Origin: a virus
Taxonomy: Duplodnaviria; Heunggongvirae; Uroviricota; Caudoviricetes
IMG/VR virus record: IMGVR_UViG_2737471841_000002
Span: 1 to 7,138 of that record
Reading direction: 5' to 3' (one strand)
DNA: 7,138 nt
Below the pieces are notes generated by a model, which worked only from the letters and a program-made list of their open reading frames with translations, searched no databases and had not been told where the DNA came from. The translations under genes were made by a program, and so were the position numbers. Shown here one piece after another: positions 837 through 3,556 of the stretch (position 1 is the stretch's first letter; every line of letters starts with the position of its first letter).

Positions 837-871
837 ACCGCGTTGTCGGCGGTGCAGATTGATAAAGAGCG
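837..871 (-). promoter_or_regulatory. nutR: boxA (863-871, reads CGCTCTTTA on - strand) and P22-type boxB hairpin (837-853, reads ACCGCCGACAACGCGGT)
   Basis: Immediately downstream of the cro stop in the PR transcript. boxB matches the P22 nutR boxB as recalled and is an interrupted palindrome ACCGC-CGACAAC-GCGGT. Confidence 0.8.
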
Positions 872-878
872 GTGTTAC

Positions 879-1079
879 TTATGCAGTTGTTTTTTTGTTG
901 CTTGGGAAGGGCTTTATTTCTTCCGCATAAACGCTTCCATCAGCGTTTATAGTTAAAAAAATATTTCGGCCTGCATGAATGGCCTTGTTGATCGCGCTTT
1001 GATATACGCCGAGATCTTTAGCCGTCTTGGTTTGACCAAAGCGCATTGCATAATCTTTCAGGGTTATGCGTTGTTCCAT
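879..1079 (-). CDS. cro: Cro repressor, lambda type (66 aa)
   Basis: Track ORF translation [66 protein letters not shown] is near-identical to lambda Cro as recalled (two conservative differences). Confidence 0.95.
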
Positions 1080-1103
1080 ACAACCTCCTTAGTACATGCA
1101 ATC

Positions 1104-1132
1104 ATTATCACCGCTAGAGGTAAAATAGTCAA
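1104..1132 (-). promoter_or_regulatory. PR promoter (-10 GATAAT = + 1104-1109; -35 TTGACT = + 1127-1132; 17-bp spacer), transcribing cro leftward
   Basis: Hexamers read directly; they overlap OR1 and OR2 exactly as in lambda. Confidence 0.85.
1106..1122. promoter_or_regulatory. Operator OR1 (tatcaccgctagaggta)
   Basis: 17-bp lambda-type operator; one substitution relative to lambda OR1 as recalled (TATCACCGCCAGAGGTA). Confidence 0.85.
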
Positions 1133-1146
1133 CACGCACGGTGTTA
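1130..1146. promoter_or_regulatory. Operator OR2 (caacacgcacggtgtta)
   Basis: Matches lambda OR2 as recalled. Confidence 0.85.
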
Positions 1147-1173
1147 GATATTTATCCCTTGCGGTGATAGATT
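1145..1173 (+). promoter_or_regulatory. PRM promoter (-35 TAGATA 1145-1150; -10 TAGATT 1168-1173), giving a near-leaderless cI transcript
   Basis: Lambda-type PRM hexamers with 17-bp spacing; the cI ATG is at 1180. Confidence 0.8.
1153..1169. promoter_or_regulatory. Operator OR3 (tatcccttgcggtgata)
   Basis: Matches lambda OR3 as recalled; overlaps the PRM -10. Confidence 0.85.
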
Positions 1174-1179
1174 TAACGT

Positions 1180-1893
1180 ATGAGCGCAAAAAAGAAACCA
1201 TTAACACAAGAGCAGCTTGAGGACGCACGTCGCCTTAAAGCTATTTATGAAAAAAAGAAAAATGAACTTGGCTTATCCCAGGAATCTGTCGCAGACAGGA
1301 TGGGGATGGGGCAGTCAGGCGTTGGTGCTTTATTTAATGGCATCAATGCATTAAATGCTTATAACGCCGCATTGCTTGCAAAAATTCTCAACGTTAGCGT
1401 TGAAGAATTTAGCCCTTCAATCGCCAGAGAAATCTACGAGATGTATGAAGCGGTTAGTATGCAGCCGTCACTTAGAAGTGAGTATGAGTACCCTGTTTTT
1501 TCTCATGTTCAGGCCGGGATGTTCTCGCCTGAGCTTAGAACCTTTACCAAAGGTGATGCGGAGAGATGGGTAAGCACAACCAAAAAAGCCAGTGATTCTG
1601 CATTCTGGCTTGAGGTTGAAGGTAATTCCATGACCGCGCCAACAGGATCCAAGCCAAGCTTTCCTGACGGAATGTTAATTCTCGTTGACCCTGAGCAGGC
1701 TGTTGAGCCAGGAGATTTCTGCATAGCCAGACTTGGCGGTGACGAGTTTACCTTCAAGAAACTGATCAGGGATAGCGGTCATGTGTTTTTACAACCACTA
1801 AACCCACAGTACCCAATGATCCCATGCAATGAGAGTTGTTCCGTTGTGGGGAAAGTTATCGCCAGCCAGTGGCCTGAAGAGACGTTTGGATGA
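1180..1893 (+). CDS. cI: CI repressor, lambda type (237 aa, LexA-like autocleaving C-terminal domain)
   Basis: Track ORF is near-identical to lambda CI as recalled, with about four substitutions (Thr-to-Ala in the N-terminal arm, K-to-R, K-to-N, Q-to-H). It is flanked by lambda-type OR and OL. Confidence 0.97.
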
Positions 1894-1924
1894 TTCAACG
1901 CAGCGAAAAAGGGTAATTCAATTA

Positions 1925-2797
1925 ATGGAACATGATGATTTACAGCAATTACCATCCCCATTCGCAAAATGGAAGGGGAAGATCGACTTAGGTGGTGAAA
2001 GTATTGATTGCTATGTGCTTGACACTGGACATCGTGTTATAGCTTTGCGAGCAACTGTAAAAGCAATTGCCAATGCGGAGTCAGGAGACCTGGCTAAATT
2101 TATTGGCGTTAGCTCACTTAATGGCTTTATAGACAAAGACTTAGTCCTGGCCGAACTCATAGAGTTTTCCATACCAGGAACCCAATTTAAGAGCCAAGGA
2201 CTTAAGACTGAGCAATTTGAATTGATTTGTCGCGGCTATGTACAGGCGCTATACAAAGGCGCGCCATTGACAGATAGACAGCGAGAAATAGCAATTAAAT
2301 GCGCTGTATTAACAGCGGGTTTAACTAGGACTGGGTTAGATGCTCTAATTGATGAGGCTACTGGGTATCAGTATGAGCGCGCAGAGGATGCTCTCCAAGT
2401 AAAACTCAGGGCGTTCATCGCTGAGGAACTAAGAGCATGGGAAAAAACATTTCCTGATGAGTTATGGGAAGAATTTGGTAGATTGACAGGATGGAGCACC
2501 CCATTGCAATCAAGGCCCAAATGGTGGGGGAAATTAGTTATAGAGTTAATTTATGACACTCTTGACGAAGATGTGGCTAAATATCTTAAAGAAAACAAGC
2601 CTGCGGCAGGAGTTCACTGGCATAGACAGTTAACCGAGAACCTAGGTGTAAGGCAGCTTGTATCAAGGTGCTGGGAGGTTATTGGGGTCGCAAAAACATG
2701 CGACACCATGCATGAGCTAAGAAGTCGAGTAGCTCAACACTATGGAAAGAAACCTGTTCAAATGACAATGTATTTACCGGAAAAAGAAATTAAATAA
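1925..2797 (+). CDS. Hypothetical protein (about 290 aa) at the rexA/rexB position; candidate lysogen-expressed exclusion or defence gene
   Basis: Track ORF 1829..2797; the first in-frame ATG after the cI stop is at 1925 (MEHDDLQQLP...). Same strand as cI and immediately downstream; followed by an intrinsic terminator. It does not resemble lambda RexA or RexB as recalled; no family recognised by eye. Confidence 0.7.
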   Translation: MEHDDLQQLPSPFAKWKGKIDLGGESIDCYVLDTGHRVIALRATVKAIANAESGDLAKFIGVSSLNGFIDKDLVLAELIEFSIPGTQFKSQGLKTEQFELICRGYVQALYKGAPLTDRQREIAIKCAVLTAGLTRTGLDALIDEATGYQYERAEDALQVKLRAFIAEELRAWEKTFPDELWEEFGRLTGWSTPLQSRPKWWGKLVIELIYDTLDEDVAKYLKENKPAAGVHWHRQLTENLGVRQLVSRCWEVIGVAKTCDTMHELRSRVAQHYGKKPVQMTMYLPEKEIK

Positions 2798-2804
2798 TAT
2801 ACAA

Positions 2805-2830
2805 CCCGGCCTCAGCGCCGGGTTTTCTTT
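2805..2830 (+). terminator. Intrinsic terminator closing the cI/rex-locus transcription unit
   Basis: cccggc-ctcagc-gccggg followed by ttttcttt, directly after the stop at 2797. Confidence 0.7.
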
Positions 2831-2985
2831 GCCTCACGATCGTCCACATAAAAAACATAATCAATTGTATTTATTGAAAAATAAATAGATACAACTCACT
2901 AAACATCGCAATTCTGATCTCTCGATCACACCACCACAGCAACACACCCCGGCAAAAAATAAATCTATATAAAAAACATACATAT

Positions 2986-3002
2986 AACAACCTGCGGTGA
3001 TA
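2986..3002. promoter_or_regulatory. Operator OL3 (aacaacctgcggtgata)
   Basis: Lambda-type operator; two differences from lambda OL3 as recalled. Confidence 0.75.
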
Positions 3003-3005
3003 AAT

Positions 3006-3022
3006 TATCTCTGGCGGTGTTG
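3006..3022. promoter_or_regulatory. Operator OL2 (tatctctggcggtgttg)
   Basis: Identical to lambda OL2 as recalled. Confidence 0.85.
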
Positions 3023-3048
3023 ACAAGCATACCACTAGCGGTGATACT
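3020..3048 (+). promoter_or_regulatory. PL promoter (-35 TTGACA 3020-3025; -10 GATACT 3043-3048; 17-bp spacer)
   Basis: Hexamers read directly and embedded in OL1/OL2; the surrounding sequence resembles the lambda PL region as recalled. Confidence 0.9.
3030..3046. promoter_or_regulatory. Operator OL1 (taccactagcggtgata)
   Basis: Lambda-type operator with one substitution relative to lambda OL1 as recalled (TACCACTGGCGGTGATA). Confidence 0.85.
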
Positions 3049-3093
3049 AAACACATCAGCAGGACGCTGGTAGCCAAACGGAACAGATTGGCA

Positions 3094-3128
3094 TGCTCTT
3101 TAACTTCGATGGGGCGCTGACAAAGCGC
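3094..3128 (+). promoter_or_regulatory. nutL: boxA (tgctctttaa, 3094-3103) and P22-type boxB hairpin (gcgctgacaaagcgc, 3114-3128)
   Basis: boxB is identical to the P22 nutL boxB as recalled (GCGCUGACAAAGCGC), a 5-bp stem with a GACAA loop, about 30 nt downstream of the PL start region. Confidence 0.85.
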
Positions 3129-3247
3129 AAACAGATACCAAACGAGATGGGTTTGGCGGTGATGTGAATTGCAGCTGCAACGACAGCAACCAGAAGATCA
3201 GCACCTGGCGCATCACCACCAAAGCCATTTCACATGAGGAAAATATC

Positions 3248-3556
3248 ATGACGGTAATCGTGTACGGAAAATCAACATTTGCAGGAAATGCCAAAACTCG
3301 CCGTCATGAGCGGCGCAGAAAGCTGGCTATCGAGCGTGATGCTATATGCAACATCATCGATTCGATCTTCGGCACAGACAGTGAGGAACCTGTTCAGGAA
3401 GCCCCGAGAAAGCGTTTAAGCATTTCTGAAAAAGCAATATCACTCGGCATCATTAGCAAATCAAATACAGATGCGAATAGCGGAAGCGTTTGTTTGCCTG
3501 AAGTTGCACTGTATGCTGCTGGTTACAGAAGGCAAAAACTAATTACAGCGAGGTAA
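3248..3556 (+). CDS. N: N-type transcription antiterminator, P22 gene 24 type (102 aa)
   Basis: Track ORF 3164..3556 with internal ATG at 3248 preceded by GAGGA; MTVIVYGKSTFAGNAKTRRHERRRKLAIERD... contains the P22 N arginine-rich motif (NAKTRRHERRRKLAIER) as recalled. It is first in the PL operon and paired with P22-type boxB sites. Confidence 0.9.
   Translation: MTVIVYGKSTFAGNAKTRRHERRRKLAIERDAICNIIDSIFGTDSEEPVQEAPRKRLSISEKAISLGIISKSNTDANSGSVCLPEVALYAAGYRRQKLITAR

Follow-up and report, generated by a model that had tools for sequence, protein, structure and literature searches.

In laboratory immunity hybrids such as lambda imm434 and the lambda-P22 phages, the immunity cassette was exchanged by recombination in flanking homology, and the position of the crossover decides whether N travels with that cassette. 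Hybrids of lambda and P22 are said to have been built in more than one laboratory study, and wild phages with lambda immunity (mEp234, HK106, HK544 and others) have reportedly been described. In mEp234, HK106, HK544, HK542, mEp332, HK244 and CL707 (EF120455-EF120461), the DNA flanking lambda cI, cro and operators varies, and its joints with them lie at the PL start and at nutR boxA; the GenBank record marks a “boundary sequence”. The rex slot is replaced, in mEp234 by hicAB. For the antiterminator N, the arginine-rich peptide of the P22 protein (NAKTRRHERRRKLAIERDT) and a boxB 15-mer are found in structure 1A4T (PMC11480772). Between phage L and P22, the N-terminal part of gp24 (about 70 residues) is conserved and boxB is identical, whereas the C-terminal part has been swapped (PMC8022706).

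The stretch analysed here (“the window”; 7,138 nucleotides, positions 1 to 7,138 of IMG/VR record IMGVR_UViG_2737471841_000002) is, by its sequence, the early control region of a natural lambdoid prophage and an ordinary patchwork. A lambda immunity cassette, comprising cro, OR, cI, a cargo gene in the rex slot and OL/PL, is set in a backbone with P22 gene-24-type antitermination, very probably as the result of a swap between two linkers. The window resembles lambda in CI, Cro, operator spacing and promoters, but has a P63C-domain gene where lambda has rexA/rexB, and its N, nutL, nutR and cII are not those of lambda. It resembles P22 in both boxB 15-mers, the form of boxA, the N arm and the Pfam family of N, while P22 carries repressor c2 and the repressor and operators of the window are of lambda type. 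As in the wild lambda-immunity phages, the rex slot is replaced and the joints lie at the PL start and nutR boxA; the 127-aa N of mEp234 and HK106, with a different arm, is unlike that of the window. Unlike the laboratory hybrids, the window is natural, and its lambda immunity stands in a background with P22-type N, the reverse of their arrangement. The arrangement is textbook lambdoid mosaicism, and the phage is of an already-known kind. The features of the immunity core are as follows.

879-1079, minus strand: cro, lambda type (blastn; Pfam Cro, E = 6e-34)
1106-1122, 1130-1146 and 1153-1169: OR1, OR2 and OR3, with PR and PRM (gap-free alignment to the annotated lambda operators)
1132-1104, minus strand: PR (consensus scan)
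1180-1893, plus strand: cI repressor, lambda type (blastn; Pfam HTH_3 and Peptidase_S24)
1886-2797, plus strand: P63C-domain gene in the rexA/rexB slot of lambda (Pfam P63C, E = 2e-22)
2803-2824, plus strand: intrinsic terminator ending the immunity transcript, equivalent of lambda Timm (terminator scan)
2825-2985: AT-rich region upstream of OL (88% identity to lambda)
2986-3002, 3006-3022 and 3030-3046, plus strand: OL3, OL2 and OL1 (lambda operator comparison)
3020-3048, plus strand: PL, TTGACA-17-GATACT, with -35 at 3020-3025 and -10 at 3043-3048 (consensus scan)

Local blastn recovered the lambda-like core in two blocks rather than as a continuous match: positions 865-1894 (cro, OR1-3, cI) aligned with lambda 38255-37226 without gaps (97.4% identity) and positions 2803-3067 (terminator, AT-rich region, OL1-3, PL) with lambda 35826-35570 (88.3% identity), and positions 1894-2802 were non-lambda. 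The initial annotation had read cI, cro, both operator sets, PL and the AT-rich region as lambda-like; blastn bore this out, with sites at or within a few bases of the positions given, but the reading of the core had omitted the non-lambda stretch at 1894-2802 with its P63C-domain gene. That gene showed no similarity to lambda by blastn and is likewise annotated in E. coli ETEC1749; a PADLOC search gave no match for the P63C protein, orf92, orf83 or a TolA-like protein. The lambda match restarts at 2803, at the terminator, whose counterpart Timm is annotated in mEp234, and parts of the AT-rich region (2825-2985) are also common to non-lambda-immune Stx phages. Cro is identical to its lambda counterpart at 64 of 66 residues (97%; differences K39N and V55I) and CI at 233 of 237 (98.3%; T3A, K40R, K71N and Q201H), with three of the CI changes (T3A, K40R, K71N) in the N-terminal domain. 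All six 17-bp operators are of lambda type, arranged in two triplets with lambda spacing and overlapping PR/PRM and PL; OR2, OR3 and OL2 match lambda exactly, OR1 and OL1 have one G-to-A change each and OL3 has two changes. On CI, Cro and operators, the predicted immunity is that of the imm-lambda group. The shared G-to-A change in OR1 and OL1 was considered as a linked pair and rejected, as mEp234 has only the OR1 change and L128 only that in OL1, so that the two are independent.

On either side of this core lie the antitermination features and their neighbours.

473-772, minus strand: cII (Pfam Phage_CII, E = 8e-34)
807-824, minus strand: hairpin ACTCATC-GAAA-GATGAGT at the tR1 position, just downstream of nutR (sequence reading)
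838-852, minus strand: nutR boxB CCGCCGACAACGCGG, exact P22 boxB-right, aligning to the annotated P22 nutR
863-871, minus strand: nutR boxA CGCTCTTTA, P22 form (lambda: CGCTCTTA)
3094-3102, plus strand: nutL boxA TGCTCTTTA (alignment)
3114-3128, plus strand: nutL boxB GCGCTGACAAAGCGC, exact P22 boxB-left and the same 15-mer as in 1A4T
3248-3556, plus strand: N antiterminator, P22 gp24 family, 102 aa (tblastn, Pfam)
3559-3837, plus strand: 92-aa open reading frame (ORF list)
3840-3858, plus strand: strong intrinsic terminator (terminator scan)

Collinear with P22 gp24 over its full length (102 aa), the N protein shares 66.7% amino acid identity with it (tblastn, E = 2e-34) and matches Pfam PF25694 N_peptide across profile positions 1-100 of 100 (E = 1.9e-38; 131.5 bits against a cut-off of 27.9). 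Residues 14-31 are exactly the P22 arginine-rich motif, and over residues 14-32 (NAKTRRHERRRKLAIERDA) identity to NAKTRRHERRRKLAIERDT is 18 of 19. N had no detectable similarity to lambda N. Its middle (about residues 43-80) has diverged from P22 gp24, and a recombination breakpoint lies inside the gene near 3447-3454, where similarity to Stx2a phages and L162 ends. Such an internal breakpoint recalls that of gp24 between phage L and P22, although the C-terminal segment, host and immunity differ in the window. Neither N nor its arm peptide, used as queries against PDB sequences, returned anything useful, the 19-residue peptide of 1A4T being below the 20-residue minimum.

Each boxB lies 3′ of its boxA at the canonical position, one between PL and N and the other between cro and cII. 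The nutL boxB folds into a 5-bp stem with a GACAA loop (-8.5 kcal/mol, z = -3.35) and the nutR boxB also folds into a hairpin. Matches with up to three mismatches would be expected by chance 0.27 (left) and 0.07 (right) times per window, and both sites are exact. The claim of P22-type hairpins on both sides was correct, as was that of a gene-24-type N; the right-hand hairpin had been given as 837-853, whereas the 15-mer itself occupies 838-852 and the extra bases are the closing A-T pair. P22 boxB-left and lambda nutL boxB differ at 3 of 15 positions. Rfam at its gathering thresholds placed no family in the window, and a nut/boxB model is absent from Rfam. From the N family, the arginine-rich motif and the boxA-boxB arrangement, antitermination is predicted to be of the gp24 type. 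By DNA identity, N and the nut sites lie closest to E. coli prophages and Stx2a phages (96-100%), with P22 at 73-85%; they are of the P22 family yet not derived from P22.

The 92-aa ORF downstream of N had no Pfam or PADLOC match, and beyond N the PL transcript meets no predicted intrinsic terminator before that at 3840-3858. On the right, cII lies in the flank that travels with the P22-type nutR and is not lambda-like at the DNA level, its lambda match being limited to 477-538; positions 443-886 are 98.6% identical to Stx2a phage Stx2_EH0505. The hairpin at 807-824 may serve as tR1, and analogous hairpins lie 3′ of nutR in other nut types. For both outer flanks, 443-886 and 3054-3447, the best matches are to one set of non-lambda-immune phages (Stx2_EH0505, 1H12 and phiKp_30), and the parts strictly outside the core, 443-864 (cII and nutR spacer) and 3068-3447 (leader and 5′ part of N), match the same phages at 96-100%. 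Candidates for a match over the whole region, namely phiKp_30, APC_JM3.2 and 1H12, were rejected: flanks or N are common to them and the window, and the repressors differ.

Alignment to lambda and P22 mapped the breakpoints and identified neither N nor the nut sites as lambda-like. The change is abrupt: over 14-23 bp, segments that are 96-98% lambda-like give way to DNA without similarity to lambda. Two joints result.

3054-3067, plus strand: left joint and linker CATCAGCAGGACGC, 14 bp, at the PL transcript start (+1 at about 3055)
864-886: right joint and linker CTGCATAAGTAACACCGCTCTTT, 23 bp, comprising the last two cro codons, the stop, an 8-nt spacer and boxA

Lambda similarity had been placed as ending about 3069 on the left, and blastn ended it at 3067; on the right, the proposed end near 879 was close, the actual end being 865, 14 nt beyond the cro stop (879-881). 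The suspicion that short conserved sequences lie at the breakpoints proved right at both joints. On the left, lambda, P22, mEp234 and the window all have CATCAGCAGGACGC unchanged; this position is marked in the P22 record as where similarity to the lambda early left RNA begins, and genome matches to one or other half break at 3052-3056 or 3067. On the right, CTGCATAAGTAACACCGCTCTTT does not differ between phages with lambda cro (mEp234/HK97) and non-lambda-immune phages whose nutR is of P22 type. The sequence of the window is that of mEp234 up to 864 and that of Stx2_EH0505 from 886; genome matches to the cro half only start at 860-865, and those to the nutR half only end at 870 or 884. Cro genes of many kinds end GCxGCxTAAG..CGCTCTT, and the break positions at both joints recur in hundreds of genomes. 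Both joint sequences are thus linkers as far as comparison can tell, each being short, common to both parental types and flanked by unrelated DNA across phages. Either short homologies may have guided recombination, or only joints at these neutral and functional boundaries may survive selection.

IMG/VR contigs, deposited phage records and complete E. coli genomes were compared with the window. The region is not uniformly similar to any one known phage: the best phage record covers at most 44% of the window and the best complete E. coli genome at most 66%, and among 50,697 deposited phage records neither joint is spanned and the combination is absent. The left joint was found in 22 and the right joint in 16 of 5,426 complete E. 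coli genomes; ETEC1749 is 98% identical over 443-3897, and one IMG/VR contig is 99% identical over 515-3454. Among 80 IMG/VR loci ascertained through N, lambda-type cI and cro occurred in 12 and P22-type nutR boxB in 70, with at least four operator families, and 79 kept the 14-mer within two mismatches. The exact 14-mer was present in 61 IMG/VR PL contexts, where operators of 15 or more types are combined with 9 or more types of nutL/N; as this set was chosen by the exact 14-mer, the estimate of conservation rests on the N-ascertained set, which has one N type. Where nutR boxB was detected in these contexts, N arm class predicted it without exception (P22 12/12, lambda 14/14, third class 5/5), and it predicted boxB at both nut sites wherever both were readable (about 60 IMG/VR contigs). 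Operator (immunity) type was unlinked to N arm or boxB type and reassorts freely.

This co-variation bears out the view that N and its RNA sites form a matched set. The further proposal, that N and its sites were exchanged together, is less economical than a swap of the immunity cassette by two crossovers, at 3054-3067 and 864-886. As N and the nut sites flank the operator-repressor cassette, a two-crossover replacement would keep N, nutL and nutR matched, and with one set of non-lambda-immune phages as the best match of both outer flanks, this swap is the simplest history. Alternatively, a P22-type phage may have donated N-nutL and nutR to a lambda-like ancestor in two separate replacements. 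The end arrangement would be the same, and repeated use in nature of junctions at boxA and the PL start makes multiple events plausible; yet four crossovers are needed instead of two, and nothing specifically lambda-like lies near the joints outside 865-3067, leaving this history quite improbable. We infer the direction and mechanism of exchange from such comparisons, and the labels “cassette” and “backbone” are a matter of parsimony, since a freely reassorting population hides the order of events.

Two readings without natural recombination fare far worse. Repeats common to lambdoid prophages can mislead assemblers, and the joints could in principle be a chimera of two co-resident prophages; given both joints in complete E. 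coli genomes (22 and 16), the ETEC1749 match, the 12 IMG/VR loci with both modules and the contig at 99%, this is scarcely credible. Divergence of N and the nut sites from lambda versions by ordinary mutation might draw on the small distance between P22 boxB-left and lambda nutL boxB, only 3 of 15 positions, but identity falls from 97% to undetectable within 14-23 bp on both sides, and N is unlike lambda N and 67% identical to full-length P22 gp24. The step-like identity profile already refutes this reading, whose probability is negligible.

The circuit can be sketched on the lambda and P22 paradigms. CI and Cro would act on the lambda-type operators, and the phage should therefore be homoimmune with lambda. 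Upon derepression, PL and PR transcripts would carry P22-type boxA-boxB nut sites, and the arginine-rich arm of N would bind the GACAA-loop boxB hairpins, working with host Nus factors. On the left, RNA polymerase would then pass the terminator at 3840-3858; on the right, it would pass the tR1 region and continue into cII and the replication genes. We infer both immunity specificity and antitermination activity by analogy; the putative specificity of N for its own boxB has indirect backing in the way N arm and boxB types vary together, without exception, across loci. The first ∼13 to 14 nt of the PL transcript (CATCAGCAGGACGC) might also be a functional element and not just a passive linker, with a role in promoter escape or in 5′-end stability of the N leader, though this is rather unlikely. 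The sequence is near-invariant while operators of 15 or more types and N/nut of 9 or more types vary around it, and in P22-type leaders a 5′-terminal hairpin spans the joint (CAGC-AGGAC-GCUG, pairing probability about 0.98). When conserved RNA structure involving the 14-mer was sought across leader types, the 5′ hairpin appeared only in P22-type and not in lambda-type leaders.

The closest RefSeq prophage labels the 102-aa ORF “hypothetical protein”; the annotation should read N antiterminator. Base-level coordinates are now available for two recurrent exchange points, and significance beyond annotation is small. About 0.3-0.4% of complete E. coli genomes show a natural pairing of lambda immunity with P22-type N. 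The window offers a clean natural case of immunity and antitermination specificity as separable modules: with N and both nut sites placed to either side of the exchanged cassette, the match between them is preserved.

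Local blastn aligned the window to lambda in two blocks, one gap-free at 97.4% identity (865-1894) and one at 88.3% (2803-3067). CI and Cro have 4 substitutions in 237 residues and 2 in 66, respectively, relative to their lambda counterparts; OR2, OR3 and OL2 are identical to the lambda operators, OR1 and OL1 carry one change each and OL3 carries two. The initial annotation of cI, cro and the operators as lambda-like is thereby confirmed. Matches to P22 fell at 835-884 (88%) and 3054-3373 (73.5%; local blastn). Both boxB sequences, each 3′ of a boxA, have exact P22 counterparts: the 15-mer GCGCTGACAAAGCGC is that of P22 boxB-left, the RNA in structure 1A4T (PMC11480772), and CCGCCGACAACGCGG matches annotated P22 nutR. 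The N protein is collinear with P22 gp24 (66.7% identity), is identical to the P22 arginine-rich motif at residues 14-31 and matches Pfam PF25694 across the entire profile. The assignment of hairpins and N to the P22 gene-24 type thus stands; neither the nut sites nor N proved lambda-like, and a search of the window for lambda-type boxB found none. The order of genes and sites is as follows, the plus strand being the one transcribed in the PL direction.

473-772, minus strand, cII
838-852, minus strand, nutR boxB
863-871, minus strand, nutR boxA
879-1079, minus strand, cro
1106-1169, OR1-3
1180-1893, plus strand, cI
1886-2797, plus strand, P63C-domain gene (Pfam E = 2e-22)
2803-2824, terminator, with an AT-rich stretch after it
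2986-3046, OL3-OL1
3020-3048, PL
3094-3102, nutL boxA
3114-3128, nutL boxB
3248-3556, N
3559-3837, plus strand, 92-aa open reading frame (ORF), directly 3′ of N and 5′ of a terminator
3840-3858, strong terminator

Past 3858 lie P22/Sf6-like early-left genes (TolA-like protein, cIII/kil, Rad52-family annealing protein and SSB). By analogy with lambda and P22, CI and Cro would act on the lambda-type operators, and once the prophage is induced, the transcripts from PL and PR would carry P22-type nut sites, where the N arm would bind boxB and NusA, B, E and G would assemble at boxA; together, N and the Nus factors would protect RNA polymerase against termination, leftward at 3840-3858 and rightward in the tR1 region. 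A hairpin with a 7-bp stem and GAAA loop (807-824, minus strand), a short distance 3′ of nutR boxB, may act as a signal of the tR1 region or for processing; many other nut types have similarly shaped hairpins (GCGCATCA...GATGCGC) 3′ of nutR. The 92-aa ORF, rich in lysine, arginine and glutamate, had no match in Pfam or PADLOC; it is also found in Escherichia coli ETEC1749, and phage phiKp_30 has an ORF in the same place.

On the left, the window tracks lambda and mEp234 (EF120460) up to and including ...GATACTAAACA CATCAGCAGGACGC, and then P22 and Stx2a phages (TGGTAGCCAAACGG...). The 14-mer CATCAGCAGGACGC (3054-3067), whose start is the annotated PL transcript start, is identical in the window and in all of these. 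On the right, in the PR direction, there is identity to mEp234, which has a lambda cro, through ...AACTGCATAAGTAACACCGCTCTTT, and to Stx2_EH0505, whose cro is unrelated, from CTGCATAAG on; the parents are indistinguishable across 23 bp (864-886) that contain the final two codons of cro, its stop, the spacer and boxA. Lambda similarity ends at 3067 and 865; the initial breakpoint estimates of about 3069 and 879 were off by 2 and 14 nt, respectively. When a 151-bp probe over each joint was searched in complete E. coli genomes, half-probe matches broke at 3067 and 3052-3056 on the left and at 860-865 and 870/884 on the right. A 5′-terminal hairpin, CAGC-AGGAC-GCUG (pairing probability ~0.98), is predicted for the opening 17 nt of the PL transcript (3055-3071, plus strand); it straddles the left joint and folds when the leader is of P22 type, but not when it is of lambda type.

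The same short sequences recur widely. The exact 14-mer occurs in IMG/VR in 61 genuine PL contexts (promoter and operators upstream, boxA downstream), which by our count of the flanks combine at least 15 operator types with at least nine leader/boxB/N types. Because such a scan selects for the 14-mer itself, we also examined 80 loci identified solely by their N protein, spanning at least four operator families: in 79 the 14-mer was present with at most two mismatches (29 perfect copies and 39 altered by one C→A). On the right, cro genes of many types end in GCxGCxTAAG, followed after ~6 nt by CGCTCTT. Conserved short sequences are therefore present at both joints, where they could be either recombination guides or mere marks of sites at which a joint is tolerated.

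Outside the lambda-like core, both flanks are best matched by the same phages, which carry other repressors. Stx2_EH0505 matches the window at 98.6% over 443-886 and at 96-98% over the interval that begins at the PL start and takes in the 5′ part of N, and phages 1H12 and phiKp_30 behave likewise. For this reason the economical history would be two crossovers that replaced the linker-flanked immunity cassette; N and nutL on one side and nutR on the other fall outside it, which would keep the three together. Separate import of N-nutL and of nutR into a lambda-like genome would yield the same arrangement, but it would require four crossovers, and the flanks lend it no support.

Cassette replacement would leave N with its own sites, and in every IMG/VR locus with a detected nutR boxB, the class of the N arm predicts which boxB type is present at nutL and nutR. 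P22-type arms go with a boxB-left that has a GACAA loop and, at nutR, with CCGC-CGACAAC-GCGG or a close variant of it (12/12), lambda-type arms with GCCCTGAAAAAGGGC (one variant) at nutR (14/14) and a third class with TCGC-TGAAAA-GCGA (5/5); loops match in two further classes too. N type and operator type showed no linkage in these loci. The N arm of mEp234, GNSRSRRRERLKAKA, is quite unlike that of the window, yet mEp234 nutL contains, at 3267-3281 of EF120460, the P22 boxB-left 15-mer found at window 3114-3128, and the mEp234 nutR boxB also has the GACAA loop, so one hairpin may be read by two different arm families.

Further mosaic boundaries were observed. N itself has an internal recombination breakpoint at 3447-3454: Stx2a phages and an IMG/VR contig (L162) are 96-99% identical to it up to residue ~67-69 and unrelated beyond, paralleling the pattern described for phage L versus P22 gp24 (PMC8022706). 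Another recurrent boundary lies at ~4188-4208, with similarity to CurroJimenez, Huey and Stx phages starting at 4188; in EF120460 it corresponds to "boundary sequence 4", the annotation with which that record ends. The sole lambda-like stretch in cII (477-538, 87%) contains a terminator-like hairpin (497-527, plus strand) where the P22 annotation puts the oop terminator. The C-terminal half of cI (1483-1887), and that half only, has ~95% matches in phage Louie and four IMG/VR loci (L133, L148, L154 and L155), the loci being without a full-length lambda-type cI, which suggests DNA-binding domain exchange inside the repressor gene. OR1 (1106-1122) and OL1 (3030-3046) share an identical G→A change (TAGCGG for TGGCGG); since it occurs elsewhere in one operator of the pair only (OR1 in mEp234, OL1 in IMG/VR locus L128), it looks like a recurrent natural polymorphism and not a linked pair. 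The P63C-domain gene fills the lambda rexA/rexB slot. It probably starts at a TTG that overlaps the stop codon of cI, which makes cotranscription of the two genes in the lysogen likely. Its product had no match in PADLOC. Other cargo fills this slot in related prophages that share the window's cI and N (a ParA-family gene, an SDH-family Clp-fold serine protease or DUF1828) and in mEp234 (hicAB).

Among 5,426 complete E. coli genomes, the left joint was found in 22 and the right in 16, and 12 of the 80 IMG/VR loci with window-type N have lambda-type cI and cro. One IMG/VR contig is 99% identical across 515-3454 and ETEC1749 is 98% identical across 443-3897; none of the deposited phage records searched spans either joint. 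Lambda-immunity phages from the wild that carry a non-lambda N are already present in GenBank, where nut sites and a "boundary sequence" are annotated (EF120460); the N of mEp234 is of a 127-aa type whose arm differs from that of the window. The window is therefore another recombinant of a well-known kind.
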